Of a stretch of 64,000 bases of DNA, positions 5,341 to 22,475 are shown piece by piece. Under the pieces are notes generated by a model that saw only the letters and a program-made list of their open reading frames with translations, was not told the DNA's origin and searched no databases. The position numbers and the translations under genes were made by a program. The stretch is from Bacilli bacterium (GTDB lineage Bacteria; Bacillota_I; Bacilli_A; RFN20; CAG-826), in the NCBI GenBank assembly GCA_034185265.1, contig JAXFZD010000009.1:3558-67557 (forward strand), written 5' to 3'. Position 1 is the stretch's first letter. Every line of letters starts with the position of its first letter.

Positions 5341-5520
5341 GCTGTAGTTATTCCTCCTAAAAACTGTAATTATTAACTTTATTCATTTCTTAGATGAAAC
5401 TTTTCTTCATCTATCACTAACCATTTAAATCTATGATTTATAAGCTAGTTAATTGTCCTATAGTGTCTATCCCTAATAACCGATAATATACATTAGAGGT
5501 ATTAAGACTATTTCTTATGA

Positions 5521-6463: not shown

Positions 6464-7197
6464 TAACAATACCCCCATTCTTTTAATAAGCGATGGATAT
6501 TTTCTAAACCGATAACAGTAACTTTGGTTGTGAATGAAACATGAGTGCCATAATTATCGGTATAATCACTTTCAACAGACTTAAACCAGCCGCGTTCAAT
6601 GTACTCGCGATATGGTTTATTCTCTTCGTTTAAGATTTGATGTTCTCTTAGTATCTTGAATAGATTATTTCTCCCTATTCCTGGTATTGCTAAAGTATCA
6701 GCGACATCTTTCATATAGATAAGACTTTTAGATCCTTTTAAAGCGCGATATTTACTAGCGTCATCAGTAATGACATCCACCACTCTATCACCAACTTTAT
6801 TAATAAAGTCTTGGTTAGTTGCTAATGCATCAATAGTTACAGGAAGAGCATTATTCTCAATGGCCATAAAAAATCTAGATTTAATCCATTCCTTAATTTG
6901 ATTCGCATTATCAAGTTTGCTTCCTTGGCATAAGTCATAAAATCCGTTGGCATTAATAAACATCATTTCTCTTCTTTGAGTTCTGAACCTGACTGTCAAT
7001 TTTTGACGGTCAGCTTCTTGAACGTGATATTTAATAGCGCGGTTAGGACTAGCGTAGCCTAAAACTTCAGCAGCATCTAATCCGCATAACCAGGTTTCAC
7101 CATTTAAAGTGATGGTTCTAACTAAACCGAAATCTTTGTTGAAGTTATCAACAGCGACAATATCGTTTTGATTTGCTTTTAATAATTTATTGGCCAT
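6463..7197 (-). CDS. Phage antirepressor (BRO-N + KilAC domains)
   Basis: N-terminal FGLVRTITLNGETWLCGLDAAEVLGYASPNRAIKYHV (BRO-N), C-terminal ..LFKILREHQILNE..PYREYIERGWF (KilAC-like). ATG at 7197 with GGAGG upstream. Confidence 0.65.
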   Translation of the reverse strand: MANKLLKANQNDIVAVDNFNKDFGLVRTITLNGETWLCGLDAAEVLGYASPNRAIKYHVQEADRQKLTVRFRTQRREMMFINANGFYDLCQGSKLDNANQIKEWIKSRFFMAIENNALPVTIDALATNQDFINKVGDRVVDVITDDASKYRALKGSKSLIYMKDVADTLAIPGIGRNNLFKILREHQILNEENKPYREYIERGWFKSVESDYTDNYGTHVSFTTKVTVIGLENIHRLLKEWGYC

Positions 7198-7198
7198 A

Positions 7199-8122
7199 TT
7201 ATTTGACCTCCTTATGAAATAGTTTTGATGAAACAACTAACTCAGAATCGTTCTCCTCGCGCTTGAGAGAATGATTGTAGATTTGTGTAGTTGATATATC
7301 CCTGTGACGTAGTACTTGTTGTGCTTCTTCTAAAGAACCACCACTACGAAGGATTTCGCTACAGACGAAATGTCTAAGTGAATGCGCGGACATATTTCTA
7401 TCTTCAAGTCCAGCTTCTAATAAGAAGTTTTTAATAACTTCTCTAATAGTCCTGGTTCTAATAGGATTTCCATATGAGTTATGCCCATGAGTGATAAACA
7501 ATGGCGCATATTCATCTCTACGATTAGCGAGATAAGTTTCGATGAAGTCAAAAACTTCATCTGATATCTTGACGTACTCAGATTTATCATCGCGGCCTTT
7601 ACCTCTTACATAGAGAATATGAGTATTGTTTATCTTTGATAAATCAGCAACTTCCGCTCTTTCAACTTCAATAGTTCTAAGGCCAGTAGTCGCGATAAGA
7701 GAGAGCATCGCATAGTTACGATAATCTTCTAATGAGCGATATGATTTCTCCTTAGCGATATTTATAAGCGCGGTAACATCATCTACATTAAGGACATCCC
7801 TTTTCATAACCTTAGTGGTTTTCATGGGATTTAATCCTCCAGAAATGTCTGGATAGATTTCTCTACCAGCTAGGTATCGGAAGAATCTATGAAGCACCAC
7901 TATGACCTTCTGAACCGAATTAGGTGACAGTCTTTTTGATAGCGATTCTTTATATTCGATTAAGTGTCTAGTCTTAGGCTTCATGATGTCATTAGCTCTA
8001 AGGTAGATAGAGAAATCCTTAAGGATTTGTTTATAAGATGATTTCGTTATCGCGGATCTATCGAGATCTAAGACGAATGAATCAATATCTTCTTCAAAGT
8101 AATCAATTACACCAGATTCCAT
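7199..8122 (-). CDS. Tyrosine recombinase/integrase (phage integrase family)
   Basis: SAM-like N-domain. Catalytic-domain motifs ATTGLRTIEV, HSLRHFVCSE and LRHRDISTTQIYNH (R..HxxR..H..Y). Confidence 0.85.
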   Translation of the reverse strand: MESGVIDYFEEDIDSFVLDLDRSAITKSSYKQILKDFSIYLRANDIMKPKTRHLIEYKESLSKRLSPNSVQKVIVVLHRFFRYLAGREIYPDISGGLNPMKTTKVMKRDVLNVDDVTALINIAKEKSYRSLEDYRNYAMLSLIATTGLRTIEVERAEVADLSKINNTHILYVRGKGRDDKSEYVKISDEVFDFIETYLANRRDEYAPLFITHGHNSYGNPIRTRTIREVIKNFLLEAGLEDRNMSAHSLRHFVCSEILRSGGSLEEAQQVLRHRDISTTQIYNHSLKREENDSELVVSSKLFHKEVK

Positions 8123-8292
8123 ATTTACCCTTTCCGGATATGAAGGGCGACTGGATTCAAATTAACAAGCTGAATAACATCTCCAATTTGCAAGTAAGGT
8201 TCGTCAACACTATTTGTTAAGTTCAAATTCATATCGTCACCTTCACACCCTTATACAAAGTTCATTAGATAGATAAGATTAAGATGAAGTAA

Positions 8293-8532
8293 TTAGTATT
8301 TTTCTTTATCCAGTTCTAATGAATCTTGGTATTCACATTCAAGTTTGTAAAAATCATCTAAAGAGATATCTAACGCTTTAGCGATTCTACCAACGATTAA
8401 GAAGGAAACCTTTCCACCTCTTTCACCACTTTCAATCATTGAGTAGTGTTGAAATGAGATACCAGCTTCCCTAGCAACCTTTCTTTGTGATAATCCTTTT
8501 TCAAGTCTTATATTTGACAAGTAAAGTCTCAT
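8293..8532 (-). CDS. XRE-family HTH transcriptional regulator (Cro/CI-like)
   Basis: MRLYLSNIRLEKGLSQRKVAREAGISFQHYSMIESGER. ATG at 8532 with GGAGG upstream; the ORF-track start at 8574 is less likely. Confidence 0.75.
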   Translation of the reverse strand: MRLYLSNIRLEKGLSQRKVAREAGISFQHYSMIESGERGGKVSFLIVGRIAKALDISLDDFYKLECEYQDSLELDKEKY

Positions 8533-8574
8533 AAAGTTACCTCCGTTTTTTTTCAGCCATTTTTCAACTGACAC

Positions 8575-8755
8575 CGCTATTTTAAATGGCTATATAAAAT
8601 GCGTAAATTTCACCCGAAAAAGTAAAAAATTACACACAAAGCTGGTGTGTGTTTATACAACAGTAACTATACAAAGTGGTCGATTTTGCAAAACATTAAA
8701 TGTTGTGTTTCTTTTCTTTTTGTTATAATTTTTATGAAAAAGATGGAGTAATTTT
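8575..8755. promoter_or_regulatory. Divergent (lysogeny-switch-like) control region between the two XRE genes
   Basis: Extended -10 TGTTATAAT (8721-8729) for the rightward gene. 13-bp palindrome AACATTAAATGTT (8692-8704). Inverted repeat ACACAC..GTGTGTG (8631-8653). Confidence 0.45.
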
Positions 8756-9712
8756 ATGAATGAAGATGAGAATTTAACTGGTAAAGTAGATGAACCAGTA
8801 GACGAAGCATCAAAGGAATCGGATTTAGGTTCTTTAATAAAACTAAGCGAAGAAGACATGAAAAAGATTATGTCTCCTATAATTGCCGCGATTAAATCTA
8901 TTAACGATACTGCGATAGAAGGCGATAAAATCATGTCTCCTATTATTGAATCTTCAAGAAAGATTAAAGACGCAATAGAAGCTATTAATTCTAGTGAAGG
9001 CATGAAAGCTTTAAGAGAAGCGATTAGGCCAATGTGCTATACAGGACTAAATTTAGATCCATATTGTAAGGCCTCTAAAATAACTAAAAAGACTCTAGCT
9101 CAAATAATGGATGTCAGTTATGAAACGCTTCGTAGATATGAAAACGCGATAAAAGTTCCTCAAATAGATTTTGTTATTAGATTATCTTTTATCTTAAACG
9201 CTCCACTAGATTCGCTTTTGAAAAGATCATCATCTTATGTCCTTCCTCAAAATGCAGGTGGATTTGAAATATATGGATATGATAAGGAAGACCGTTCTTA
9301 TAGAAAAACAGGGAGAATCGCGAGAATCGATGAGAACATCCCTAGCGATAAAGGTGCTTATAATGCGTTTGAATTAGCATCTGACTCTCCTTTACTAGGA
9401 GCGAAGAAAGGCGCGGTAGTTTTTCTAAAGAAATCTGATTGGTATCATGGAAAAGGTTTGTTCAATTCTGATAGACCTACATACGCTTTAATTGATAAGG
9501 AATATCAGAATAATAGGCTTGTCGCGATTGAGCCATGTTTTATAAAGATAGCTCCAGTAATTGATAGATCTGGCAATTTCCAAAACGAAAGTCATGGTAG
9601 TCGCTTCTTCAATTACATCAAACATATTGGAGGAGCGATATCCACTATTACTTATCGCGATTTAGAAGCCATGGTTTCATATATTGTAATTAAATCAGTT
9701 ACCGATTATTAA
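8756..9712 (+). CDS. XRE-HTH repressor-like protein with an extended N-terminus and a C-terminal CI/S24-like region
   Basis: HTH segment ITKKTLAQIMDVSYETLRRYENAIKVPQIDFVIRLSFIL. GGAG RBS. The N-terminus contains an internal ~20-aa duplication (KIMSPIIAAIKSINDTAIEG / KIMSPIIESSRKIKDAIEAI). Confidence 0.55.
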   Translation: MNEDENLTGKVDEPVDEASKESDLGSLIKLSEEDMKKIMSPIIAAIKSINDTAIEGDKIMSPIIESSRKIKDAIEAINSSEGMKALREAIRPMCYTGLNLDPYCKASKITKKTLAQIMDVSYETLRRYENAIKVPQIDFVIRLSFILNAPLDSLLKRSSSYVLPQNAGGFEIYGYDKEDRSYRKTGRIARIDENIPSDKGAYNAFELASDSPLLGAKKGAVVFLKKSDWYHGKGLFNSDRPTYALIDKEYQNNRLVAIEPCFIKIAPVIDRSGNFQNESHGSRFFNYIKHIGGAISTITYRDLEAMVSYIVIKSVTDY

Positions 9713-9845
9713 AAAAGAAAGACTTAGTCTTTAAAAAACGTCCACACTAGATAATTGCGAAAATCTATCCATGATGATAGTCTAGATTCGCAAGTAAGAT
9801 AACACTAAAGAATAACATCTCCTTGGAAACAGGGAGATTTTATTT

Positions 9846-10049
9846 GTGACAAAAGATACCAGCTACGAATTTGAAGTAGCGATATTAGATAAGCTATTAA
9901 AAGAAAAGAAAATCAGCTACCAGGAATGGTACGTTCTTTTAATTGAACTTTGTCATAAATATAACCTCCCTTGTATTAATAATATCAATTATATTGATAT
10001 TAAGTCAGTATTGAGGCAATATACACATGATGGCAAAGGAAGTAATTAA
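9846..10049 (+). CDS. Small hypothetical protein (67 aa) overlapping the start of the first serine recombinase
   Basis: GTG start with GGGAG upstream; 23-nt overlap with the next gene. No recognisable motif. Confidence 0.3.
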   Translation: MTKDTSYEFEVAILDKLLKEKKISYQEWYVLLIELCHKYNLPCINNINYIDIKSVLRQYTHDGKGSN

Positions 10050-11727
10050 AGTAGCGAGTCCCGCTCAATATATCGCCTCTACTGGTTTAGAAAATAAAAT
10101 GAAACGTGTAGCGGCATACGCACGAGTGTCTACTGATAGCGAGGATCAGATTCACTCTTTTAAAGCACAAATTGATGAATACACCTCTAAAATAACCAGT
10201 AATCCTAACTGGGAATTTGTTGGCATGTATTCTGATGAAGGTATCTCAGGTACTTCTTTAAAGAAAAGAGACGGACTTAATGCCTTATTAAAAGAAGTTA
10301 AGAAAGGTAATGTTGACCTAATTTTAGTGAAGTCTATTTCTAGATTAGGAAGAAATACGTTAGATATCCTCACCATTGTTAGAGAGCTTAGAGAAATTGG
10401 CGTGGAGATTAAATTTGAAAAGGAAAACCTTTCATCTTTAGATACCAGGACCGATATGGTCTTAACATTCCACTCCTCCATTGCTCAAGAAGAAGCAAAA
10501 AACATCTCCGATAACGTTAAATGGGGAATTAGAAAAAGGATGAGAGATGGTAACTGGAAAGTACCAACTGAGAAGTTCCTTGGTTATACCAAAGATGAAA
10601 ATGGGAACATGATAATTGATGAAACTCAAGCTGATATCGTTAGAGCCATCTTTAATCTTTATCTCGCTAATAAGTCAATAAAAGAAATAATCGCTTATTT
10701 AGAAGGTAACCACTACTTAACTGGTTCAGGTAAAGAAAAATGGAGCCGCCAAAACATCATGCAGATTCTCCAAAATGAGAAATACAAAGGTGACTTAATT
10801 CTTCAAAAGACTGTTGTTATTGATTATTTATCTCATGAGTCTAGAAGTAATAAAGATGGAAAATACGCGGACATGTGGTTAGTTAAAAACCACCACCCTG
10901 CCATTATTTCTAGAGAGGCCTTTGATTTAGTGCAAACCATCATTGAGTATAAAAAGAACGATAGATTCCTTAGACCTAATATAGGTGGCCCATTATCCAC
11001 CAAGCTTTATTGTGGCCTATGTGGGAGACCACTATTTTATCAATCAAGGTGTGATGGAAAGAACATGTTCAGTTGCAATGTGTCTAGAAGAAATCTCCAA
11101 AGGAACAAATGCGAACTATCGCCAATTCAAGAAGAAGATATAAATGCCATCTGCATCCAAGCGATGAAAGCATATTATTCTGATAATTCTCTTACCGCTA
11201 ATCTTTTAGATTGCTTAACTTCTCTTGGTGAGGCTTCTCACAAGCAAGAGGAACTTAACAGGGTTAAAGAAGAGATAACCACTACTGAAAATAGGCTCAA
11301 AGACATTATTGAGGAAAAGATGGAAACCGATTCTGAAGAAGACGATGAAAGATTATCTAACGAATATAAAGAAGCCAAGAAGCATTTAAATGATTTAAAG
11401 GCTAAATTAGACACTTTATCTGGTGAAACATATCAATCCTTTATCTCCGAAGCTAGAAACAAGGAAATCGCCTCTTTAATAACAAATATGGATAACGATG
11501 AATGCTACTTAAAACTTATCGATGAAGTAATCGTTAATGAAGATAACTCTATCATCATAATCGATAATGCTGGTCACCACGTTTCTAAAGAAAACATCAG
11601 CAAAAACATCAAAAAGATAAACGGCTTAGAAGAAGTCATGTATGGTTACTACACTTCTCCTATAACCACTAAAGTTTTTAAATACAAAATTGTAAGATTG
11701 GAGGATTACCCATGGCTCAAGAAATAA
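10027..11727 (+). CDS. Large serine recombinase (resolvase/invertase N-domain + recombinase domain + zinc ribbon + coiled coil)
   Basis: RVAAYARVSTDSEDQ..S (catalytic Ser region), LILVKSISRLGRN, zinc ribbon CGLCGRP..C..C, C-terminal coiled coil. Confidence 0.9.
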   Translation: MMAKEVIKVASPAQYIASTGLENKMKRVAAYARVSTDSEDQIHSFKAQIDEYTSKITSNPNWEFVGMYSDEGISGTSLKKRDGLNALLKEVKKGNVDLILVKSISRLGRNTLDILTIVRELREIGVEIKFEKENLSSLDTRTDMVLTFHSSIAQEEAKNISDNVKWGIRKRMRDGNWKVPTEKFLGYTKDENGNMIIDETQADIVRAIFNLYLANKSIKEIIAYLEGNHYLTGSGKEKWSRQNIMQILQNEKYKGDLILQKTVVIDYLSHESRSNKDGKYADMWLVKNHHPAIISREAFDLVQTIIEYKKNDRFLRPNIGGPLSTKLYCGLCGRPLFYQSRCDGKNMFSCNVSRRNLQRNKCELSPIQEEDINAICIQAMKAYYSDNSLTANLLDCLTSLGEASHKQEELNRVKEEITTTENRLKDIIEEKMETDSEEDDERLSNEYKEAKKHLNDLKAKLDTLSGETYQSFISEARNKEIASLITNMDNDECYLKLIDEVIVNEDNSIIIIDNAGHHVSKENISKNIKKINGLEEVMYGYYTSPITTKVFKYKIVRLEDYPWLKK

Positions 11728-13364
11728 TTCAAATTAATAAAGCTACCCCGGTTGGTAAAAGAAGAGTATGTGCTTATACACGCGTTTCTTCTAAAAGCGA
11801 AGACCAGGAGAATTCTCTCACTTATCAAATTGAAGCTTACACCAAGATGATCATGACAAATCCTAGCTATGAGTTCTGCGGTGTTTTCGTTGATGATGGA
11901 GTAACTGGTACTTCTATTTATAAAAGAAAAGAGTTCCAAAAGATGATAGATAAAGCCCTAAGTGGTCAAATTGATTTAATCATCACTAAATCCTTATCTA
12001 GATTCTCTAGAAATACTGAAGATGCGATTAATATCTTAAGAGTTCTTAGGAATAACAATGTGGAAGTCTATTTTGAAACAGAGAATGTTTCTTCCTTTAA
12101 TATGGATAGCGAATTAGTCATTAACGTATTAAGTGCTCATGCCGCTAATGAATCGAAAGTCATCAGTGATAATGTTAGGATGAGCTACGCTAAAAACTTT
12201 AAAGATAAAAAGGCCTACTTCAATCCTGAACAGCTATATGGTTATCATCGCGGTAATGATGGAAGCATTGTTATCGATGAAAAAGAAGCTGAGGCAGTTA
12301 GACTAATCTATGACCTTTATTTAAAGGATTACACTAGACAGGCAATTATTGATGAGCTAGATAGGAGAGGACTAAAACCTAGATTCACTAAGAAATGGAC
12401 ATTCCAGGCATTTAGAAAAATACTTCATAACGAGAAACACATGGGTGCCGCTTATCTTCAAAAAACATTTGTTAAAGGAGTAAGAGGAAAACGACTTAAA
12501 AACGATGGAACGCTACCTACTATTCTAATTGAGAACAATCATCCCGCGATAGTCAGTAAAGAAGTATGGATGGCTGCTAATGAAAAGCTCAAACAAAAAG
12601 CAATTAAATATCAAAGTCAGGTTCAATATGATGAAAAGCGAGAGGGTAAAATCTGTTTTAATAAGAGCATTTATTCTGGTCTATTTATGTGTGGAAAGTG
12701 TGGTAAAAACTATAATTTCAAAATAAACAATAGAGGCAAGGCATCAGAGTCAAGAATCTTCCACTGTGCATCAAATCGAGAAAGAAAGATTTGTGAGAAT
12801 GATGATCTTCCTTTAGATGTTATCGATATCATTACTCTTAAGGTTGTAAACAAGATTATCACCAATAAAAAGAACTTCTTTGACTTGCTAGAGGAATCAT
12901 TCAATTCTAAAAATGATGTAGAGAAAAAGAAGAAAGAAATACAGGAATTGCAAGAAAAAATAGATGTTTTACAGGCAAAATTCAAAAAGTACAAAGATAT
13001 CGATGATGAGTTTTATCGCGAGGTCAATAAGGCTTATAAGGAGAAGCTTAAACCTCTATGCATGAAGAAAGTAGCCCTTGAGAATTCAATAAACACCGCT
13101 ACTAGCGTTAACGATTATCTCTATCAATTTAAAAAAGTCCTATCACCATACGATAGAACCATTTCTTCTTTAATCGACTTTCCGCTTAATAAAGTATTTA
13201 GTAGGGTAATCATACACGATAGAGATCATATCACTTTTGTTCTTGGGGAAGCTGGTGATATTTCCACCATCACTTCTATGGATGATGACATCCTAATTCA
13301 AACAGAACCATACCTAATTAGAAAAACAAAACATCTGCTTAAATACGGAATCTATATCAACTAG
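11712..13364 (+). CDS. Large serine recombinase, second copy, translationally coupled to the first
   Basis: RRVCAYTRVSSKSEDQ, LIITKSLSRFSRN, zinc ribbon CGKCGKN..C..C, coiled coil. GGAGG RBS and 16-nt overlap with the upstream gene. Confidence 0.9.
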   Translation: MAQEIIQINKATPVGKRRVCAYTRVSSKSEDQENSLTYQIEAYTKMIMTNPSYEFCGVFVDDGVTGTSIYKRKEFQKMIDKALSGQIDLIITKSLSRFSRNTEDAINILRVLRNNNVEVYFETENVSSFNMDSELVINVLSAHAANESKVISDNVRMSYAKNFKDKKAYFNPEQLYGYHRGNDGSIVIDEKEAEAVRLIYDLYLKDYTRQAIIDELDRRGLKPRFTKKWTFQAFRKILHNEKHMGAAYLQKTFVKGVRGKRLKNDGTLPTILIENNHPAIVSKEVWMAANEKLKQKAIKYQSQVQYDEKREGKICFNKSIYSGLFMCGKCGKNYNFKINNRGKASESRIFHCASNRERKICENDDLPLDVIDIITLKVVNKIITNKKNFFDLLEESFNSKNDVEKKKKEIQELQEKIDVLQAKFKKYKDIDDEFYREVNKAYKEKLKPLCMKKVALENSINTATSVNDYLYQFKKVLSPYDRTISSLIDFPLNKVFSRVIIHDRDHITFVLGEAGDISTITSMDDDILIQTEPYLIRKTKHLLKYGIYIN

Positions 13365-13390
13365 GGGATAAACAATATCCTCTTTTTTTA
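13363..13390 (+). terminator. Rho-independent terminator after the recombinase pair
   Basis: AGGGGATA-aacaa-TATCCTCT followed by TTTTTTT. Confidence 0.6.
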
Positions 13391-13400
13391 TGAGAGCAAA

Positions 13401-13500
13401 TTCGTGTACGGACAATTGGACTTTAAAACATATTAGGGTGCCGACAATTGGAGACATCATCGATGAAATATCCCCAAGGATTTTGTCCAAGGGGATTTTT
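13401..13500 (+). repeat. Cassette-boundary repeat copy R1
   Basis: Box a GGACAATTGGA (13410-13420), box b CGACAATTGGAGACAT (13442-13457), 32 bp apart. Followed by hairpin TCCCCAAGG..CCAAGGGGA and a T-run (13471-13500). Confidence 0.9.
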
Positions 13501-14764
13501 AAATGCCAATCATATAAATTGGACAATACCAGTTGTCTGCATTTATTGGAAACAAATCTTCTCGAGAATCAATCACTATTCCTTTTGAAACTGGCTTTCC
13601 ATATTTTTTTAAGAAATTAAAGTTAAAATTATTGCTTACTGGATTGATGCCTTTTTTAATTTCGATCGGAGATATATGGTCCACATAATCAATGATTAAA
13701 TCAGCTTCTTTTTTATCCTTATCGCGATAATAATAGAAATTTCTTCTATAATCCACACCAGCATTTATGTAGCTTTTAATAATTTCACTAACAGCATATG
13801 TTTCGTAAAAAGCACCATTCATTACACCGTTTTCAAGCATTTCGACATTTGGCCATTTACATAAATATGCACACAAGCCAGTATCCATGAAGTAAAACTT
13901 AGGGGCTTTGGTTATTCTATCAGACATATTTTTTGCATATGGTTCTAACAAAATAGCAATTCCCGAAGTAACTAAAATAGAAATCCAGTTTTTAACAGTT
14001 CTCACATCAATACCTATATTTCTCGAAATATCATCATAATTGATTTGTTGGGCGGTTCTTAAAGCCATATAATCTAAAAATCTTAAGAAGTCACCTTCTT
14101 TATCTACATTAATTATCTTTTTGACATCTTTTTCGATATATGTGGCAATATAAGAACTAAAGAAAGTATCTCTGTTTAAATCTTTAGCAATATATTCAGG
14201 CATTCCACCTTTAAATATTCTTTCAAAGATTTCCTTGCGATTGCGATAAAGATTTTTGTCTTTGACTTTGGCGTATTTTTCTTTCAAACAATCTAAATCA
14301 GGGTTAAAAATGTTTCCGTCTATTTCTTCTTCTAACTCATTATTTGCTAGCGATGCCATATTCAATATTGCAGTACGACCTGCCAGTGATTCAGATACCA
14401 TGTTTTGTAATTCAAACTGATTGGAACCAGTTAAAACATACATGAGTGGAACTGGCACATTGTTTTGCAAACATTTATTCTTTTCGCTATCCACCACTAC
14501 TTTGATTGCATCTAAAAGAGGTGAGGCTTTTTGTATTTCGTCGATAATAATTGGCCAAGGATGTGCTTCTAAAAAGAGCTTTGGGTTTTTATTTGCCAGC
14601 GTTCTATTTTCCAAATCATCCAAAGAAACAATGCCCATTTCTTTTCCGAAAACTTTACCAGCAGTTGTTGTCTTTCCGACCTGTCTAGCACCATAAATAG
14701 TGATGACAGCATATTCGTTTTTTATCTCATTGAGTTTTCTTTCAATTGTTCTAATATATTCCAT
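13499..14764 (-). CDS. AAA ATPase with C-terminal DUF4143-like domain
   Basis: Walker A GARQVGKTT, Walker B PIIIDEIQ, C-terminal ..FYYYRDKDKKEADLII.. pattern typical of DUF4143 proteins. ATG at 14764 (GAGG upstream) preferred over the TTG at 14773. Confidence 0.75.
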   Translation of the reverse strand: MEYIRTIERKLNEIKNEYAVITIYGARQVGKTTTAGKVFGKEMGIVSLDDLENRTLANKNPKLFLEAHPWPIIIDEIQKASPLLDAIKVVVDSEKNKCLQNNVPVPLMYVLTGSNQFELQNMVSESLAGRTAILNMASLANNELEEEIDGNIFNPDLDCLKEKYAKVKDKNLYRNRKEIFERIFKGGMPEYIAKDLNRDTFFSSYIATYIEKDVKKIINVDKEGDFLRFLDYMALRTAQQINYDDISRNIGIDVRTVKNWISILVTSGIAILLEPYAKNMSDRITKAPKFYFMDTGLCAYLCKWPNVEMLENGVMNGAFYETYAVSEIIKSYINAGVDYRRNFYYYRDKDKKEADLIIDYVDHISPIEIKKGINPVSNNFNFNFLKKYGKPVSKGIVIDSREDLFPINADNWYCPIYMIGI

Positions 14765-14840
14765 ATGATTCAACCTCGATCATATAATACAACATATTTT
14801 CGACCAAAACAACAGTGCAATGCTATTTTAGTCGAAGTAG

Positions 14841-14960
14841 TATGTTTATCGACAATTGGATTTTGAAATGTATTCATTCATCGACAATTGGAGACATCGA
14901 TTTGAAACTTCCCCCAAAATTTCGCCCAAATCAGGGTAAAATGGAAGGGGGGTTTTATTT
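14841..14960 (+). repeat. Cassette-boundary repeat copy R2
   Basis: Box a CGACAATTGGA (14850-14860), box b CGACAATTGGAGACAT (14882-14897), 32 bp apart. Followed by a C5..G6 hairpin and TTTTATTT (14909-14960). Confidence 0.9.
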
Positions 14961-15046
14961 ATGCCAAACAATACTCTTAAATACACCCGAGCGGAAATTG
15001 TCAAGACACGTACAAATTGTATATGTCTTTTTTATCTTATATACGT

Positions 15047-15359: not shown

Positions 15360-17177
15360 ATGAAAATAGAAGATATTAAGAAATATCAATTAGATGGATA
15401 TTTTACTTTAAACGAAGATGGAGAGGAACTTGAAGATTTTACAAAAATCAAGCTTATCGAATTTTGCGCACAAGATATCCAAACTATTATTCGTTATCGT
15501 TATGGCATGCCAGAATTATTAGCAAGGATCAAAAAAGATGATGATGAACTTCTGATGGCTAAATATAGTGAAAAATATCACATCACTCCAGAAGACTTCT
15601 TGGTTAGATTTGAATTTGAAAACAACAATGAAAATGGCTTTGATTACGACGACATCTATAGTTGGAGTTACTCAGTGAACATTAAAGGAGTTACATCTCC
15701 TAATCTTGATGATAAATCACTAGAAGATTATAAAGATGTAACTGATTATCTTTTTGAAAATGACGATCATTTGCTAAAACATTGTATTAGAAAAATTAGA
15801 ATCATGAATTCTGATAAACCACAAAAAGAGTGGGAAGAATTGAATTCATTTTTAAAAGATATTATTGAACAAAATAAATTGCCAAGAAATCAAAGAACAT
15901 ATAAAGATTCCACCTTATCTCAAATACTTTATGAAATGTCTGCTGCATCATCATTTAATATTAAAACAAATGATGAATTTAATAGTTTTTATCACACAAA
16001 TGTTGAAAGGCTTGCTAAACAGGGAAATTACACTTGTATGAGACTTCTCGGATATAACTATTATGAAGGAGATGGCGGATTCCCTCTTGACCCAAAACAA
16101 TCTTTATATTGGTTAGAAAAGGCTTATCAAATTTCTCAAGACCCTGATTTGGCTAGAACCATCGGTTATATTTATTATTATGGAAGAACTACAGATGGAG
16201 TGCCTCAAGGAGATAAAGCATTTCAATATTTTGCGATTGGGCATTTCGCCGGTGGTTATTATGAAGCCACTTATAAATTAGCAGATTGTTATTTGAAAGG
16301 ATATGGTACTCCAGTTAACGAACAGGCTGCGTTCAATTTGGTAAGCAGCATATTCAAAGCAACTCAAGATAATTATTTATCTGGTGAAGATAGTAAATTT
16401 GCCGATGTTGCTTTAAGAATTGGTTCATATTTCAAAGATGGAGTTTATGTTGATAAGGATTTAATTATTGCTCAAGGTTGCTTACTTCAAGCAAGAGACG
16501 CAATTAAGACTCGTTTAGAGAATATGGAATATGTTGGTGATAGAAGCGTTGCTCTTTCTATATCGAAAGCTCTAAATGAAGTAGAAAAAGAATTACATAT
16601 AAAAGATAGAACTATTGTTAATAAAGGTTATGAATTGTTTGACTTAAATAATACATTTAAAGACTATGAAATCAGATTAAAAAAGTTACCAGATAATAGC
16701 ATTGAAGTAACCATTAAACCAAAAAAAGAAGACAGTAAATACATAATACCTATTTGGGAAAATCTTTCATACACCGAAAGGGCTGAAAGTATAAAATTGG
16801 TTCTAAAAAATAATTATATAAACGATAAAACTTTCAAAGATCATTATGATAAGAAGTGGCAAGCAATAGATTTCTATGGTAAGGAGATCTATTTATCAAG
16901 AAGTAAAGATGACTTTGTAATGTTGAGAGCAGAGCATATCATTTACATTCCACAAAAAATCAAAAAGTTAGGTAAAGATTATAAGATGGTCTCGGTCGAG
17001 TTTTATCCTGGTTCCAAACAATATGATTATTATTGTGAATTTGAAACCAAAGTAGGAGATATCGTTAAAGTTTATTCAAATGGTGAAAAGAAAGAGGCTC
17101 GAATCGTTTCAATTAAGATAGTTTATGAAGATCAGCTTCCATTACCAATGCAAAAGCTTTCGAAAGTATATAGATAG
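15360..17177 (+). CDS. Sel1-like repeat (SLR/TPR-like) protein with unknown N- and C-terminal domains
   Basis: 605 aa. Central repeats LAKQGNYTCMRLLGYNYYEGDGGFPLDPKQSLYWLEKA, ..YYEATYKLADCYLKGYGTPVNEQAAFNLV. AGAGG RBS. Confidence 0.6.
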   Translation: MKIEDIKKYQLDGYFTLNEDGEELEDFTKIKLIEFCAQDIQTIIRYRYGMPELLARIKKDDDELLMAKYSEKYHITPEDFLVRFEFENNNENGFDYDDIYSWSYSVNIKGVTSPNLDDKSLEDYKDVTDYLFENDDHLLKHCIRKIRIMNSDKPQKEWEELNSFLKDIIEQNKLPRNQRTYKDSTLSQILYEMSAASSFNIKTNDEFNSFYHTNVERLAKQGNYTCMRLLGYNYYEGDGGFPLDPKQSLYWLEKAYQISQDPDLARTIGYIYYYGRTTDGVPQGDKAFQYFAIGHFAGGYYEATYKLADCYLKGYGTPVNEQAAFNLVSSIFKATQDNYLSGEDSKFADVALRIGSYFKDGVYVDKDLIIAQGCLLQARDAIKTRLENMEYVGDRSVALSISKALNEVEKELHIKDRTIVNKGYELFDLNNTFKDYEIRLKKLPDNSIEVTIKPKKEDSKYIIPIWENLSYTERAESIKLVLKNNYINDKTFKDHYDKKWQAIDFYGKEIYLSRSKDDFVMLRAEHIIYIPQKIKKLGKDYKMVSVEFYPGSKQYDYYCEFETKVGDIVKVYSNGEKKEARIVSIKIVYEDQLPLPMQKLSKVYR

Positions 17178-17225
17178 GCGTCGTATCTGCTGTAGATAAT
17201 TCCTCTATTCTACTAACCAACTTGT

Positions 17226-17313
17226 GTGTGCCGACAATGGACTTTGAAACAGTTCGTGTGCGCGGACAATTAAAGACAAATCAAATCAAATAGTCCCAAG
17301 AAATTGGGATTTT
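17226..17313 (+). repeat. Cassette-boundary repeat copy R3 (most degenerate)
   Basis: Box a CGACAATGGA (17232-17241), box b GGACAATTAAAGACA (17264-17278), 32 bp apart. Followed by hairpin TCCCAA-gaaa-TTGGGA and TTTT (17294-17313). Confidence 0.8.
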
Positions 17314-17390
17314 ACTTGAAAAAAACAACGCTTATATTATAATATACTCGAAAGTTAGTAACTTTAAAGTATATAAAGGAGGTTTTGACA

Positions 17391-18749
17391 ATGTTTGTTG
17401 GAAGAGAAAAAGAATTAAAACAACTAAATAGCGCTTTTTCATCACAAAATAAAGAATTAGGTATTATTTATGGTAGGCGTAGAATTGGAAAAACAAAACT
17501 CATCGATCAATTTGTGAAAGACAAACCGCATTTGTTTTATCAAGCGAAAGAGGACAGTTCGTATGGCAATCTACGCTCATTTTCTTATGAATTAAATAAA
17601 TTAATGTCTTTGCCTTTGGATTTCGTGTATTCAAGTTGGCAAGCTGCATTAGATGCTTTATCTAACTATTTTAATGGCTCTAGATTTATTTTATGTATTG
17701 ATGAATATCCATTTATCACTAAACAGGATAAGTCTTTCTCGTCTATTGTTGAAGAATTTTACGATCATTCAAATGATAATTTAATGCTATTAATCTCTGG
17801 CTCCGATGTATCTTTCCTCAAAAAAGAGATTAGAAACAAAAAATCACCATTATATAAAAGGAAGACATTTGAGATGAATGTTCAAAAACTTCCATTAGAG
17901 GAGGCTCTACAATTCTTTAATGGTGTTGATAAAGAAACAATATGTTCTTTTCTTTCAATAATGTCAACTTTCCCTTATTACTTATCTGCAATCAATACAA
18001 ATAATACTTTTGAAGATGAAATAAAAAGGTTAGTAATAAACGAATATGGCCCTTTTTTCAATCTTCCAGAAAACGTTTTATCAAAATCAAACAAACCAGA
18101 TATTTATAATGCTATTCTATTTGCAATCGCCAATAGAAAAACAAATATATCAAGCATCTCTTCATTCATTAAAGAAGAAACAGGAAAAGTATCTAAATAT
18201 TTAACAACTCTTTTGGAGTCAGAAGTAGTCGGAAAAAGAACAACATTTAATGGAAACAAAAAGAACAATTATTATGTAATAACAGATCCTCTTCTTAAAT
18301 TTTGGTATAAAGCAGTATACCCAAATCAAAGCAGAATTATTATCAATCCAGATATGATTTTTGATGAAATAAAAGTCGACTTAAAACAGGCTGTCGAATT
18401 TGGGTTTGAAGACGTATCTTTACTATATCTCAATAAACTTAATAGAACCGGAAAGCTTGGTCGCGTTTATCCAGAAATCCAAACATTCAAAGCAGATAAT
18501 ACGAGATTGGGCAGATTCGTAGAAATAGATGGTTTGGCCGAGCAGGATGGCCATTTATTAGTGGTCGAATGCAAATATAGAAAAGAAAAATTTACAATAG
18601 AAATGTTTGAGCACCTTAAAGAAAGCGATTCTATATTTAATAAGAACCTCATAAGGGAATACTATCTATTTTCCAAATCTGGTTTCGATGAACAATTAAA
18701 AGAATCAATTAACGTTAAGTTAATCGATTTAAGTATCTTGTTCTCATAA
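17391..18749 (+). CDS. ATPase of the archaeal-ATPase/DUF234 type (STAND-like)
   Basis: MFVGREKELKQL..GIIYGRRRIGKTKL (Walker A), FILCIDEYP (Walker B), C-terminal DUF234-like region (EIDGLAEQDGHLLVVECKYR). ATG at 17391 with AGGAGG 9 nt upstream. Confidence 0.7.
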   Translation: MFVGREKELKQLNSAFSSQNKELGIIYGRRRIGKTKLIDQFVKDKPHLFYQAKEDSSYGNLRSFSYELNKLMSLPLDFVYSSWQAALDALSNYFNGSRFILCIDEYPFITKQDKSFSSIVEEFYDHSNDNLMLLISGSDVSFLKKEIRNKKSPLYKRKTFEMNVQKLPLEEALQFFNGVDKETICSFLSIMSTFPYYLSAINTNNTFEDEIKRLVINEYGPFFNLPENVLSKSNKPDIYNAILFAIANRKTNISSISSFIKEETGKVSKYLTTLLESEVVGKRTTFNGNKKNNYYVITDPLLKFWYKAVYPNQSRIIINPDMIFDEIKVDLKQAVEFGFEDVSLLYLNKLNRTGKLGRVYPEIQTFKADNTRLGRFVEIDGLAEQDGHLLVVECKYRKEKFTIEMFEHLKESDSIFNKNLIREYYLFSKSGFDEQLKESINVKLIDLSILFS

Positions 18750-18752
18750 TTC

Positions 18753-18858
18753 ATTACTCGACAATTGGACATTAATTGTATTCATTCATCGACAATTGGA
18801 GAAACGATTGATTATCGAGACACCTACGTAAAAGTGCGTGTTTTTTTCTTTTTTTTGG
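18753..18858 (+). repeat. Cassette-boundary repeat copy R4 (includes a terminator-like hairpin)
   Basis: Box a CGACAATTGGA (18759-18769), box b CGACAATTGGAGAAAC (18790-18805), 31 bp apart. Imperfect hairpin CACCTACG..GTGCGTG followed by T7CT8 (18821-18856). Confidence 0.9.
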
Positions 18859-19007: not shown

Positions 19008-19469
19008 TTATTTGTTCTCTTCAACAGCTGTTTTTAATTTCTCATCAGTATATGGGTTGGCATCGAAATATTCATCTTGCTTAACAATTCCAGCTTTAAT
19101 TAAAAGCTCAATATAAATTGAATCATATGTTTCAAACATCATTTCCTCATCTTTAGAAGCAGGATCGCTATCTAATGATAATTCTAATCTATTTAATAGT
19201 AGTCCAAGGAAAGGATATGGGTCTGATGCTTTTAAACAGTGACCATCAAAATTGTAAAACGCTATCATAAAATTCCATGCGTCACGTCTACCATTTATTG
19301 AATTCTTTAAATATTTAAACCACTCATCAAAGACAACTTGGTCACCATATTCTGCGATTAATTGCTTTGCAATTTCTAGTAAACGATCAACTTCATCGTC
19401 TGAATAGTCGCTTTGAAAATTAATACTAAATAATTCTTTATTAATATTTTCATCGTATTCGGTTTTCAT
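19008..19469 (-). CDS. Acidic 153-aa protein, immunity-protein-like
   Basis: ORF 2 nt downstream of the toxin-like gene. Acidic, helical, no signal peptide. The call is by context only. Confidence 0.4.
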   Translation of the reverse strand: MKTEYDENINKELFSINFQSDYSDDEVDRLLEIAKQLIAEYGDQVVFDEWFKYLKNSINGRRDAWNFMIAFYNFDGHCLKASDPYPFLGLLLNRLELSLDSDPASKDEEMMFETYDSIYIELLIKAGIVKQDEYFDANPYTDEKLKTAVEENK

Positions 19470-19471
19470 AA

Positions 19472-20017
19472 TTAATTACCTCCTTTAAAATTAGGTGATT
19501 TAGGATATTTTGCAAATGCTTCATGAGCCCATTTAATTGATTTTGAATTTGGTCGATAATGACCACTTCTATCATCATATGAGACAATTTGACCACGTTT
19601 TACAACTAGTATTCCTGCCATCCTCACTTTCGGGTCCGTACCACCTATCAAAGTAGGATGCGGAGTAGGAAGAGCACCTAGCGCACGGCCATTTCCATTT
19701 CTGTTTCCAATTATAACTTCACCTTTGGTTGTGATTACATATGGTAGAATCATAGATCCATTGCGACCTCCAATGTATTTACCATCATAAATGGACTCTA
19801 GTGTTTTTGCTGTCGGGTTCATCGAATATCCAATACCTGGCTTATAAACACCATATTTGATATCTTTTTTCATCATTTTGGCGTAAACGGAATACTCTTT
19901 TTGATAGGGCTGAGAGTTTCCGCCTAGGGGCGATAAAGAATAAAAGCTGCAACTTCCTCCAGAACCACCACCAGAGAAATTTGAGAATAAAGGACTACTA
20001 CCCTTCATCGTTATCAC
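19472..20017 (-). CDS. 181-aa protein with a Gly/Ser-rich N-terminus and a conserved-looking C-terminal domain (candidate toxin module)
   Basis: NFSGGGSGGSCS linker, then ..PTPHPTLIGGTDPKVRMAGILVVKRGQIVSYDDRSGHYRPN. Overlaps the upstream gene by 20 nt. The family was not identified. Confidence 0.4.
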   Translation of the reverse strand: MITMKGSSPLFSNFSGGGSGGSCSFYSLSPLGGNSQPYQKEYSVYAKMMKKDIKYGVYKPGIGYSMNPTAKTLESIYDGKYIGGRNGSMILPYVITTKGEVIIGNRNGNGRALGALPTPHPTLIGGTDPKVRMAGILVVKRGQIVSYDDRSGHYRPNSKSIKWAHEAFAKYPKSPNFKGGN

Positions 20018-20702
20018 CTTCAGAAAGTCTGCGCTCCCTATCTTTAGCGTTTTCTTTCATTGTGTAAGAATCATAAGGATAAATAGGAATTCCCTTTAAT
20101 CTTACATAAGCAAATATCTCATCAGGAACTGGCCCATACACACAAATTCCAGTAGGCTCTAATGTGTCTACTATTTTTTGAACTTGTTCCGCAAAGATGT
20201 TGCGATTATCAGTTCTTTTGATAAATCCATTAGTGCCAATAGCAATTAATGTATGATGAGGATATGCCTCGAGAGAAGATAATGTTCTGTTGTCACCTAG
20301 TCTAACATTTGGGACGACTTTAATACCTTGAGAACCATAATAATAGGTTATTCCTAGATTTAATCCTATTTGGCTCTTTTGAACCCAAAGTGGCATATTA
20401 TCGTAAGGACTTGCATCAACACCAATTATCAATCCATATTTTCTTAACTTTTCAGTATAAGCTTTTGGGTTACCTAAAATTGGTTGAAACGCTGGATCGT
20501 TGCAATAAAATGACATTCCAGTTTCAGATGGATTCGTAACATCGCATCTTCTATCCCACTGAATTATTTCTTTTGGAGGCTCAGTGGCAACCATCCATTC
20601 CTCAATTATTGCGAAACCATCGGTTTCGGTTCGTCCAGCTCCGTCAATGAGGTAGGCGAGATAGACGTCCCTGATATAGGGAGATTTTGGTTTTCGTAAC
20701 AT
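19998..20702 (-). CDS. DUF4417-like protein
   Basis: 234 aa. The FYCNDPAFQPILGNPKAYTEKLRKYGLIIGVDASPYDNMPLWVQKSQIGLNLGITYYYGSQGIKVVPNV pattern matches my recollection of DUF4417 proteins. Confidence 0.5.
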   Translation of the reverse strand: MLRKPKSPYIRDVYLAYLIDGAGRTETDGFAIIEEWMVATEPPKEIIQWDRRCDVTNPSETGMSFYCNDPAFQPILGNPKAYTEKLRKYGLIIGVDASPYDNMPLWVQKSQIGLNLGITYYYGSQGIKVVPNVRLGDNRTLSSLEAYPHHTLIAIGTNGFIKRTDNRNIFAEQVQKIVDTLEPTGICVYGPVPDEIFAYVRLKGIPIYPYDSYTMKENAKDRERRLSEGDNDEG

Positions 20703-20867
20703 AAATCAATTTTTACCTTTTTACGGTTTTGCCGTGTATTTAAAATTGAGATATGCTACTATTTATTTGGTGATTGCTAATTCAGCATATCTCTAATCGT
20801 AACCATTCGCACTGGTTGCGATTTTTTAGCAAATGTGTTCATTCTGTTCATACATCCTCCTTTTTTA

Positions 20868-21284
20868 CTATTCTCTCATATTCTCATACCTACCACCTCC
20901 ATTCAAAAACTCGTCTTCAACATCATTAGATGTTTTAACTTCAATATTGTTCATAACGCATTTCTTTTGTAATGTTTTATCATCAGTGATGAGGCAATAT
21001 CCGTCGATAAAAGCATATGCCATACATAAACAATCATAAGTAGATAAAGATTCGTATTTTAGAGCAAATTCACTTGTTTTGGCTATTATCTCATCTTTAT
21101 CATTTGTAATTACAGTTACTGATTTTCTGACAATTTCAGCCAATTCATCTGGCTTAATTAATTCGCCTATTATTTGAGTTTCAGAAATATAAAATTGGTC
21201 TTTATATTGCGATAAAGAACCAAGTTTGCCATCTTGGTAAAAAGTTATTAGAAAACATGAGTCGCAATATAAAAATTTCTTCAT
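20868..21284 (-). CDS. PIN-domain-like protein (putative toxin ribonuclease)
   Basis: 138 aa. N-terminal FLYCDSCFL (Asp), ..LSTYDCLCMAYAF.. and CLITDDKTLQKKC match PIN acidic-residue spacing. The start lies 1 nt after the stop of the upstream gene. Confidence 0.55.
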   Translation of the reverse strand: MKKFLYCDSCFLITFYQDGKLGSLSQYKDQFYISETQIIGELIKPDELAEIVRKSVTVITNDKDEIIAKTSEFALKYESLSTYDCLCMAYAFIDGYCLITDDKTLQKKCVMNNIEVKTSNDVEDEFLNGGGRYENMRE

Positions 21285-21285
21285 A

Positions 21286-22335
21286 TTATTCTGTCCTCAT
21301 ATTTTGCATTACATCATAAAGCGGAACATGCAAAAATTCTGCCGCTCTAGAAATTGTTATTAATTCTTCAGATAAAGCTAAATACACTTGTTGGGTAAAA
21401 ATTGTTGGCTTTTCAGAGTCCTTAACAGAATCTAAAAGTGTTTTTTCCATTTTTCTGCCACCATTTCTATTTAAGAAAATAAAGTAGTTTTTGTGGTACG
21501 TTTCCGTAATAACACCTGTTTCTAAAAGTCTATTTAATAAACAAGAAGGAGCAATTTTATATTGCTTAGCAATTTCATTTCTAAGATATGTTGTTATATT
21601 TCTATTTGTTTTACCAAATATAGAATAAATATCTTCATCGGGAATTAAAACATTACCTGCGACTTGGTTGATATATTTTTCAACATCTTTTTCCGACATG
21701 TTTTCTTCAGAATTATTAAAGAATAAATGACACGTTTCGTGAATTAAGGTGAATCTTTGTCTTTCAATTGTTCTAATTTTGGAATTGAAGAATATATAAG
21801 GAATGCCGTTTACCAATCCATTAATTCCGTCAATTTCATCAGAGCACTCAAAAGAAAGAATGATGATACCTGCATGTTCTAAAACATTAGTAACAGAATA
21901 AATTGGTCCAGAAGATGGGAGACCCAGAATAGATCTTATTATTTTGGCGTTATTAGAAGCAATATTATTAAAAGATAGTTTTTTAGCCTTAAAAATTTTA
22001 AAATTCAGCAAACCAACAATATTCATCAAAGCAACACGCTCAAAACATTTATTTTCAATTTCACTTTTTAAAAGTTCGATATCATTTTTTGAGGCTTTTT
22101 GTTTTTTTCTAAAACTGACATGATTAAAAACCAAATTACTATTATTTCTAGAAAGTAATTCAGTCCATGGAATATCTAAAGCATTAGCGATATTTTTGCA
22201 AATATCAATGTTTGGCTCCCTTTCTTCATTTTCATATAAAGAAATAGCAGCTTTAGTGCATCCAATTGCTTTAGCAAGCTCTTCAGTTGTCATTCCTTTT
22301 TTTAAACGGTAATACTTGATTTTTTTGCCAATCAT
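21286..22335 (-). CDS. Fused XRE-HTH / ImmA-IrrE (COG2856) zinc metallopeptidase
   Basis: MIGKKIKYYRLKKGMTTEELAKAIGCTKAAISLYENEER (HTH) and FTLIHETCHLFF (HExxH). ATG at 22335 with GAGGTG RBS; the ORF-track start at 22389 is unlikely. Confidence 0.8.
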   Translation of the reverse strand: MIGKKIKYYRLKKGMTTEELAKAIGCTKAAISLYENEEREPNIDICKNIANALDIPWTELLSRNNSNLVFNHVSFRKKQKASKNDIELLKSEIENKCFERVALMNIVGLLNFKIFKAKKLSFNNIASNNAKIIRSILGLPSSGPIYSVTNVLEHAGIIILSFECSDEIDGINGLVNGIPYIFFNSKIRTIERQRFTLIHETCHLFFNNSEENMSEKDVEKYINQVAGNVLIPDEDIYSIFGKTNRNITTYLRNEIAKQYKIAPSCLLNRLLETGVITETYHKNYFIFLNRNGGRKMEKTLLDSVKDSEKPTIFTQQVYLALSEELITISRAAEFLHVPLYDVMQNMRTE

Positions 22336-22359
22336 ATTCTTCACCTCTGTAAACATTTT

Positions 22360-22388
22360 ATCATATTTTTTTATTTTGTTAACAGTCA
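22360..22388 (-). promoter_or_regulatory. Candidate promoter of the XRE-ImmA/PIN operon
   Basis: Minus strand: TTGACT (22388-22383), 17 nt, TATGAT (22365-22360). Confidence 0.45.
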
Positions 22389-22410
22389 ATTATTGTGAGT
22401 GAAAAAAATT

Positions 22411-22475
22411 GTCCGTGAATCGACAGTTGACCTTAAAACCATGTCCGTGTATCGACAATTGGAGACATAGAGAGT
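22411..22475 (+). repeat. Cassette-boundary repeat copy R5 (last copy, abuts the core genes)
   Basis: Box a CGACAGTTGA (22421-22430), box b CGACAATTGGAGACAT (22453-22468), 32 bp apart. Both boxes are preceded by GTCCGTG. Confidence 0.9.

Follow-up and report, generated by a model that had tools for sequence, protein, structure and literature searches.

The attachment sites of large serine integrases such as A118/LI, Bxb1, phiC31 and SPbeta SprA adjoin the recombinase gene and consist of quasi-palindromic half-sites of approximately 23-25 base pairs (bp) around a non-palindromic 2-bp crossover (PMC3783163). A repeat of similar layout, called R below, is found in the stretch of DNA analysed here: 64,000 nucleotides (nt) of a Bacilli bacterium (GenBank assembly GCA_034185265.1, contig JAXFZD010000009.1, positions 3,558 to 67,557 of the forward strand), referred to as the window and numbered from its first letter. 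R is approximately 58 bp in length, is present in five copies on one strand and, in its first copy, adjoins genes for two large serine recombinases, here named SerA and SerB; as in the integrase systems, element and target share only the crossover dinucleotide. The R system differs from those sites in several respects: the recombinase genes are two and in tandem, an extra half-site of the same orientation (box a) lies 31-32 bp outside the site of approximately 50 bp, a tRNA gene is targeted at its CCA end, and hybrid sites are apparently reused for the building of arrays.

Three described systems share the array habit. The staphylococcal cassette chromosome (SCC, SCCmec; CcrAB) and the Enterococcus cassette chromosome likewise combine a pair of large serine recombinases with boundary repeats and with tandem accretion of units that may or may not carry recombinase genes, and relaxed choice of site pairs has been reported for CcrAB and for A118 (PMC3783163). 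However, SerA and SerB are not Ccr orthologues (best NCBIfam Ccr scores of 117 bits for SerA and 107 bits for the other recombinase, against cut-offs of 700-900), and their target is tRNA-Ser (GGA, GCT or CGA) rather than the 3' end of rlmH (orfX). The boundary here is an element-borne two-box arm of 55-60 bp, whereas that of SCC is a 15-20 bp copy of the target, and the cassettes can be as small as 1.4 kilobases (kb), with a single gene. The ssrA islands of Dehalococcoides (DsiB/DsiA; McMurdie et al. 2011, PMC3146451) also pair a CcrB-like recombinase with tandem islands downstream of a stable-RNA gene, and those without integration genes have been read as cis-mobilizable elements formed by accretion; they differ in their target (the T-loop of the transfer-messenger RNA), in their 20-bp direct target repeats and in a small second recombinase, and no two-box arm has been described for them. 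The behaviour of the R arrays matches the tandem accretion of integrative and cis-mobilizable elements in general (PMC5704250). Integron arrays are alike in that small, often one-gene cassettes with a site at one end, which here include defence candidates, are stacked beside a recombinase and shuffled between genomes. Integrons, in contrast, employ the tyrosine recombinase IntI, folded attC sites and a common Pc promoter, whereas the recombinases here are of the serine class and the site is unstructured and double-stranded; a promoter-like site accompanies at least one cassette, and a terminator stands at the start of most.

We consider it probable that R is the element-side (P) arm of an attachment site of the SerA/SerB family, bounding tandem cassettes at tRNA-Ser genes, with box a as an accessory part. 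The phased second box is the new component of the site, and the array resembles the tandem accretion of SCC or Dehalococcoides ssrA islands; the literature searched, an incomplete library, yielded no account of such a system or of any phased accessory half-site used by large serine recombinases. The copies of R in the window are:

13399..13456, + strand: R1, which closes the recombinase-bearing island on the right; box a 13410-13420, box b 13442-13452, crossover CA 13455-13456
14839..14896, + strand: R2, the repeat to which the earlier note on this DNA referred; box a 14850-14860, box b 14882-14892, CA 14895-14896
17222..17278, + strand: R3, degenerate; box a 17232-17242, box b 17264-17274, CA 17277-17278
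18748..18804, + strand: R4; box a 18759-18769, box b 18790-18800; at its centre (18803-18804) AA stands in place of CA
22410..22467, + strand: R5, the last copy, preceding surface-protein genes; box a 22421-22431, box b 22453-22463, CA 22466-22467

Both boxes are CGACAATTGGA or close variants of it. With at most one mismatch, CGACAATTGGA has eight matches in the window, where 0.8 would be expected and none of 100 shuffles gave as many, and seven of these matches, all on the + strand, fall within R1, R2, R4 and R5. The degenerate R3 was found by a profile search; a profile built from all copies recovers only R1-R5 in the window, and a profile search of positions 1-13,000 yielded neither an additional copy nor a left-end site. 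The earlier note, which was made from the sequence alone, had given start-to-start distances between the boxes of 32, 32, 32, 31 and 32 bp in R1-R5, and the box starts reproduce these exactly. It had described the unit as two 11-bp boxes: both boxes are real, but each sits in a half-site of approximately 23 bp that includes a GT-rich or TTCAT motif, and the final T assigned to box b lies outside the unit, which stops sharply at GGAGACA. The sharing of TGTATTCATTCATCGACAATTGGAGA by R2 and R4, and the GT-rich motifs ahead of the boxes in R1, R3 and R5, hold as that note had them; these "subfamilies" are variants of the distal part of the half-site. R4 reads GGAGAAA (18801-18804) in place of GGAGACA. 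Labels such as L001 and L028 denote related loci that were compared with the window (approximately 65 in all), and the equivalent cassette end in L008 and L010 has CA. Given the AA of R4, some junctions are probably frozen: the R4 junction is probably no longer recombinable, with the unit encoding a DUF234 ATPase thereby fused to the next one. The 14-nt right flank of R5, TAGAGAGTAAGGGA, is found again in L035 and L036.

The position of the junction is given by an unoccupied and an occupied version of one site. In the unoccupied locus L056, tRNA-Ser(GGA) ends in CTCCGCCA and is followed by GATAAGTAAATTAGTCCG and then by an FAD-oxidoreductase gene (in alternative extents, CTCTTTCTCCGCCA is joined to GATAAGTAAATTAGTCCGCATCATAGTCGGACTTTTTT, and the tRNA side ends in CCGCCA). 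In the occupied locus L028, TTGGAGACA (the R side, also given as TCGACAATTGGAGACA) is joined to the same GATAAGTAAATTAGTCCG and the same FAD-oxidoreductase gene, whose protein is 100% identical in the two loci, and a SerA/SerB island lies upstream. The left sides of L056 and L028 have only CA in common, which is the end of the encoded CCA; the attB of L056 would be tRNA-Ser followed by GATAAGTAAATT. This arrangement recurs: four right flanks (the target arm B', the DUF234 cassette, the DUF4143 cassette and a common flank named alpha) are each found joined either to a tRNA ending in GCCA or to an R ending in GACA, with an identical break point. The DUF234 cassette starts after tRNA-Ser in L010 and after R3 in the window, the DUF4143 cassette after tRNA-Ser in L021 and after R1 in the window, and alpha has tRNA-Ser or R on its left in the pair L024 and L026, with the same break base in each case. 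R has no similarity to the 3' end of tRNA-Ser apart from the CA. A 2-bp overlap is the signature of a serine recombinase, and on this comparison R appears to be a site-specific recombination site with its crossover at CA, by which the island inserts at the CCA end of tRNA-Ser.

These junctions also bear on the proposal that R is an insulator, a regulator site or the like, and that homologous recombination between the 55-bp repeats is all that shuffles the cassettes. A direct repeat of 55 bp can support RecA-dependent deletion and duplication, and spacer variants are mixed among cassettes that share a left flank (the DUF4143 flank occurs with two spacer types), which suggests some exchange inside the repeat. 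However, the same cassettes are joined to tRNA-Ser, which has only CA in common with R, and because the tRNA and R junctions share only 2 bp, homologous recombination cannot make them. R is, moreover, tied to the serine recombinase pair and co-varies with it, as described below. We regard this proposal as very improbable.

The alpha flank (tcatcgATTGTCGAGACACGTACG...) repeats the extended box in inverted form. The GT-type P arm GTACGTGTATCGACAATTGGAGA and the reverse complement of alpha, GTACGTGTCTCGACAATCGATGA, agree at 19 of 23 positions when counted by hand; mirror scores at junctions of R with alpha range from 9 to 16 of 23 and are at least 12 in 8 of 12 sites, against a null mean of 6.3. 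The joined R and alpha read as a quasi-palindrome of approximately 48 bp around the non-palindromic CA, which is the form of a serine-integrase attP, and the GT-rich motifs are the distal part of the half-site; in serine-integrase attP sites the half-site is 25 bp and is contacted by the recombinase and zinc-ribbon domains (PMC3783163). Alpha occurs after three tRNA-Ser isoacceptor genes (GGA, GCT and CGA), always with island DNA next. As the native downstream sequence would differ after three different genes, alpha is taken to be element-borne, and we interpret it as the left arm of the element (P'), with tRNA/alpha as attL and R/B' as attR. Two complete small elements have this structure: L048 (approximately 4.1 kb) comprises tRNA-Ser(CGA)/alpha, two small open reading frames (ORFs), a truncated SerA, SerB and R, and L034 (approximately 8 kb) runs from tRNA-Ser(GGA)/alpha to SerB and R. 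In L048, GACATT replaces the GACAAT of the window type, both in the two P boxes and in P'; L034, L036 and L044 break this pattern, and co-variation between P and P' was not used as evidence. The window contains these alpha-type sequences:

18805..18847, + strand: alpha-type P' arm after R4, an inverted copy of the extended box with a hairpin (18820-18841) and T-run
14997..15037, + strand: orphan alpha-type (P') half-site and hairpin, ATTGTCAAGACACGTACAAATTGTATATGTCTTTTTT, with no R or left arm beside it

Judging from the orphan half-site, R2 and R3 probably once enclosed two units, separated by a junction that has since decayed.

R1 lies directly past the terminator of SerB, and the overlapping recombinase genes are preceded by a small ORF:

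9846..10049, + strand: 67-amino-acid (aa) ORF overlapping the SerA start; a candidate helper or directionality factor, this function being a guess
10027..11727, + strand: SerA, large serine recombinase of 566 aa with Resolvase, Recombinase and Zn_ribbon_recom domains
11712..13364, + strand: SerB, large serine recombinase of 550 aa with Resolvase, Recombinase and zinc-ribbon domains; terminator at 13363-13390

The 67-aa ORF is also found upstream of SerA in L028, L029, L030, L044 and L045, and it has no match in Pfam or PHROG. Not only in the window but also in 12 related loci (including L014, L028, L035/L036, L040, L044, L045 and L048), R comes next after the SerB terminator; this held wherever a SerB relative had enough downstream sequence. 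The SerB clade is tight, with identities of 69-98%, and the next relatives are at 37% or less; the two-box design with 31-32 bp spacing was demonstrated only within this clade. Relatives that share 69-80% identity with SerB keep the pair of direct boxes at 31-32 bp, but the box sequence has changed, and the second box ends in GGACAT or GGCAT:

L031 and L034: box CCTAACATTTA, spacing 32 bp, second box ending in AAGGACAT
L032 and L033: box TTTGACATTT, spacing 32 bp, second box ending in AAGGACAT
L048: box GCCGACATTTG, spacing 31 bp, second box ending in GAAGGCAT
L038: box ATGGCAATTG, spacing 31 bp, second box ending in CTGGCAT
L044: box of intermediate form, spacing 32 bp, second box ending in AAGGGCAAT

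The site thus co-varies with the recombinase across lineages, and the spacing of 31-32 bp is not accidental. Past the nearest outgroup pair, in L052 (37% identity to SerB), a different direct repeat is found at 11653-11760, consisting of two copies of AAGTTCAAATCCG at 22 bp; it resembles a tRNA T-loop.

Spacing and conservation were assessed over a larger set of sites. When species-representative genomes were searched for the two-box pattern with any gap of 15-30 allowed, all 23 matches had a spacing of 31 or 32 bp; they lie in metagenome-assembled genomes of uncultured rumen or gut bacteria of Bacilli, Mollicutes or Erysipelotrichaceae type, and in one genome labelled Tissierellaceae. Additional loci collected through SerB relatives and neighbouring genes raised the total to 38 distinct full sites, with a spacing of 32 bp in 33 and 31 bp in five. 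Conservation across these sites is 79-100% over the 16 nt up to GGAGACA and falls to approximately 70% or less directly right of the junction, where 36 different 20-mers occur among the 38 sites. The left flanks of R belong to a few classes (the SerB terminator, the upstream region of DUF4143, the 3' end of DUF234, and others) that are freely paired with various right flanks: the R that ends the DUF4143 unit, for example, is followed by five different kinds of sequence across genomes. This free combination of left and right flank classes shows that the units are modular. A distant blastn search with R1 against a plasmid collection and a scan of viral contigs for the two-box pattern gave no match. 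Variable spacing in homologous loci, which the earlier note had said would make the phasing accidental, was not seen in the 38 distinct sites or in the five diverged recombinase lineages. The constant spacing, the CA junctions and the adjacency to the serine recombinase pair support its proposal of a recombinase or architectural-protein site with fixed phasing, although the binding itself is predicted from sequence.

Two side observations concern SerB. A second insertion hotspot lies between the SerB stop codon and the SerB terminator with R: unrelated inserts of 0.5-3 kb are present there in four loci (L020 4706-4162, L026 764-2286, L041 554-1495 and L045 11635-14637), starting near GGAG followed by (C/T)TGGC. 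In addition, SerB remnants (from residue approximately 276-284 onwards) with R retained are found directly past tRNA-Ser/alpha in L035 (112-912), L036 (5837-6637) and L039 (4053-4472); these look like deletion derivatives of the island.

The island also encodes an XerC/D-like tyrosine recombinase (7199-8122, to the left of SerA), and an integron-like reading would have this enzyme act on the repeats as attC-like sites. Cassettes that mostly hold one gene and have a repeat at one end, arranged in an array, and the tyrosine recombinase approximately 5 kb away are as this reading would have them. However, the enzyme scores 52 bits against an integron-integrase cut-off of 265, and it is present in the window, L044 and L045 islands but absent from the R-carrying islands L028 and L048. 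The single-strand folding z-scores of R1-R5 range from -0.35 to +1.11, indicating no hairpin potential, and half-sites of approximately 23 bp around a 2-bp overlap are unlike 7-bp core sites in a folded strand. We regard the integron-like reading as exceedingly improbable. Among the proteins that the earlier note had named as possible binders, the serine pair always adjoins R, whereas the tyrosine recombinase and the XRE proteins are not constantly linked to it, the latter also being absent from L028 and L048. Rfam covariance models gave no relevant match at the gathering threshold or at E<=1 and folding was no better than that of shuffles, and an RNA or attC-like reading of R was rejected on these grounds.

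A hairpin and T-run follow most copies of R. The earlier note had reported these after R1-R4, and all four were located (R1 13471-13500, R2 14910-14956, R3 17294-17313, R4 18820-18847, within 12-20 nt); R5 has a weak hairpin only. Most of the 38 sites have a hairpin and T-run 12-40 nt past the CA, of a sequence that differs by unit, and most of them form a stable hairpin within the first 55 nt, close to a T-run, when folded as RNA. A terminator scan called the R3 hairpin, on the - strand only, and did not call those of R1, R2 and R4. The terminator-like shape is as had been described, but the hairpin does not belong to the repeat unit: it travels with the neighbouring unit, being the left end of the next cassette or the terminator of the tRNA. 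In the empty site of L056 it is the tRNA's own terminator, and in alpha the distal half-site motif itself forms the left stem. Three left ends illustrate this in the window:

13457..13500, + strand: DUF4143 cassette, left end, carrying a hairpin (13471-13495) and a T-run; also found after tRNA-Ser in L021 and after R in L006, L040 and L044
14897..14956, + strand: start of the next unit after R2, with a C5...G6 hairpin (14910-14952) and T-run (14953-14956); in L011, R is followed by a cassette start resembling this one
17279..17313, + strand: left end of the DUF234 cassette, with hairpin TCCCAAgaaaTTGGGA (17294-17309) and T-run; the identical sequence follows tRNA-Ser in L010

The DUF234 hairpin stands ahead of the promoter-like site of that cassette (17316-17343), and the DUF234 and Sel1 units have no terminator before R4 and R3, respectively. 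Each element may thus carry a left-end terminator that replaces the tRNA terminator or terminates the upstream cassette.

The terminator past almost every copy, together with the XRE-family genes nearby, could also be taken to mean that R is a transcription signal or small RNA: operator boxes for XRE proteins, a promoter, or a small RNA ending at the hairpin. Against this, the copies of R lie on one strand whatever the direction of the genes, with cargo on both strands and several copies at gene 3' ends; this constant orientation argues against a promoter, operator or terminator role tied to genes. The hairpin sequence is not conserved with the repeat but moves with the downstream unit, and the region shows no excess of promoter-like matches (40, with 48.5 expected), none of which lies inside R. 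Such a signal is very improbable as an explanation of R, in agreement with the earlier note, which had seen neither a simple terminator nor a simple promoter; the promoter reading, with no enrichment and no site inside R, was rejected.

Box a is conserved at 82-100% over the 38 sites, on par with box b, while the intervening spacer is much less conserved. Within each diverged lineage, boxes a and b are identical to each other at 15-20 of 20 positions. The sequence after box a, in contrast, is not conserved between lineages and includes neither a CA-centred partner nor a crossover-like sequence. Box a is therefore a lone half-site in the same orientation as box b, approximately three helical turns upstream and on the same face of the DNA. 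All 38 full sites, as well as the five diverged lineages, have it 31-32 bp upstream, so that the conserved unit is not the self-sufficient site of 40-50 bp; this is a departure from the canonical site and no ground for exclusion from the serine-recombinase site family. Most likely, box a is an accessory binding site for an extra recombinase subunit, which could be of either paralogue, and it might help in site choice, synapsis, directionality or the use of P-containing hybrid sites. Small serine recombinases have accessory res sites II and III (Tn3/gamma-delta) or a direct-repeat site II (Sin) at a fixed helical phase beside the crossover. These would resemble box a as phased extra sites and differ in belonging to small resolvases, in binding dimers and in acting as a topological filter; nothing equivalent is known to have been established for large serine recombinases.

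The sequences show the anatomy of the site, the position of the junction, the modularity of the cassettes, the link to the recombinase pair and the constant spacing; the identity of the binding protein, catalysis by SerA/SerB, the role of box a and the terminator function are inferred from them. Taken together, these features suggest the following mechanism. Box b and approximately 10 nt upstream of it (GT-rich or TTCAT) would form a half-site of approximately 23 bp abutting the crossover CA, and a further recombinase subunit would bind at box a, the accessory site. In the chromosome, the element would target the CCA at the 3' end of tRNA-Ser genes, and integration would yield the order tRNA/P'...element...P/B'. 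More elements would then be added in tandem, many of them single-gene cassettes without a recombinase of their own. The hairpin after R would be either the native tRNA terminator (in B') or a terminator in the P' of the next element, and an incoming P' terminator would replace the tRNA terminator or insulate the upstream cassette. As every boundary would carry a copy of P, R would mark module boundaries in one orientation whatever the gene direction.

Several points weigh against this interpretation. Canonical serine integrases need a directionality factor to recombine hybrid sites, and accretion cassette by cassette would need a relaxed site choice, which is assumed here by analogy. Many cassette left ends score only 2-9 of 23 as mirror half-sites and may be inactive or otherwise recognised, and L034 pairs a window-type alpha with a diverged P arm. 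We were unable to find an empty version of the window's own locus, as four contigs with an identical 1572-aa neighbour are all occupied alike, and no tRNA or alpha site that could serve as the island's own left junction was found in the approximately 5 kb past the left end of the window (Logan contig). With respect to box a, we know of no established precedent in large serine integrases. Single-box derivatives are present in L005 (reverse strand, approximately 1007-981 and 777) and L023 (2822-2798), both at degraded junctions. Lastly, canonical large serine integrases need approximately 40-50 bp and no accessory site (PMC3783163).

The last two of these points, and the lack of a crossover-like sequence past box a, would be expected if box a were a functionless relic, an inherited tandem duplicate of the P half-site, and only box b and the crossover mattered. 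A neutral duplicate should, however, decay or vanish, whereas the two-box form with 31-32 bp spacing has been kept in 38 distinct sites and five diverged lineages, box a equals box b in conservation, unlike the spacer, and both boxes have changed sequence in concert in the diverged lineages. One of the single-box versions is an exact 32-bp deletion between boxes a and b, at a locus that is full of fused cassette fragments and in which the start of the DUF234 cassette is joined to the 3' end of SerB; both cases are in visibly degraded junctions. A relic is accordingly an unlikely account of box a, and the reading of R as a P arm with an accessory box is preferred.

The units between the copies of R carry the following cargo:

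13499..14773, - strand: AAA_14/DUF4143 ATPase, PADLOC candidate PDC-S01
15360..17177, + strand: Sel1-repeat protein
17385..18749, + strand: ATPase_2/DUF234 ATPase, PADLOC candidate PDC-S27
19008..22389, - strand: five-gene block encoding proteins of 153 aa and 181 aa, a DUF4417 nuclease-like protein, a PIN-like protein and a helix-turn-helix protein with an M78 peptidase (RmrA-like)

In the five-gene block, the genes of defence interest, the RmrA-like PADLOC candidate among them, lie at 19998-22389. The array comprises five boundaries and four recombinase-less units and looks like a defence-cassette store; the order of the cassettes differs in other genomes. Exact-protein look-ups of the DUF4143 and DUF234 ORFs returned no match, probably through different start codons in the gene calls. 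As a separate observation, four independent Logan short-read contigs with identical SerB (L001-L004) all end 136 bp past the gene, which is 43 nt past R1, at the hairpin that opens the DUF4143 cassette; these endings fit a DUF4143 cassette that is multi-copy or variably placed in those samples. To the left of the recombinase pair, the island (window 1-9712) encodes a small-terminase-like protein (4747-5340), a DnaD-like loader (5521-6309), a Bro/ANT antirepressor and XRE regulators, and contigs related to it are listed in IMG/VR. The island thus resembles a phage satellite or prophage remnant with one tyrosine and two serine recombinases.

A further and more speculative proposal, to which we give less credence than to its rejection, is that SerA/SerB and the two-box P arm form a serine-recombinase counterpart of the integron, which captures, stacks and exchanges small cassettes, with box a enabling the use of hybrid sites. 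If this were true, the self-contained cassettes of such a counterpart would for the most part hold candidate anti-phage genes and would sit at tRNA-Ser genes, each equipped with a terminator, a promoter and a P arm; the accessory box a would let the recombinases use hybrid sites that are closed to canonical integrases, and single cassettes could then move individually. Large serine recombinases are widely used as genome-engineering tools. The R system would be a natural large serine recombinase system with a phased accessory half-site, and as such it bears on site choice and on the control of direction. For uncultured Bacilli of the rumen and gut, it outlines a way in which single-gene cassettes may be stacked and exchanged at tRNA-Ser genes; several of these cassettes match candidate phage-defence families (PDC-S01, PDC-S27 and RmrA-like).

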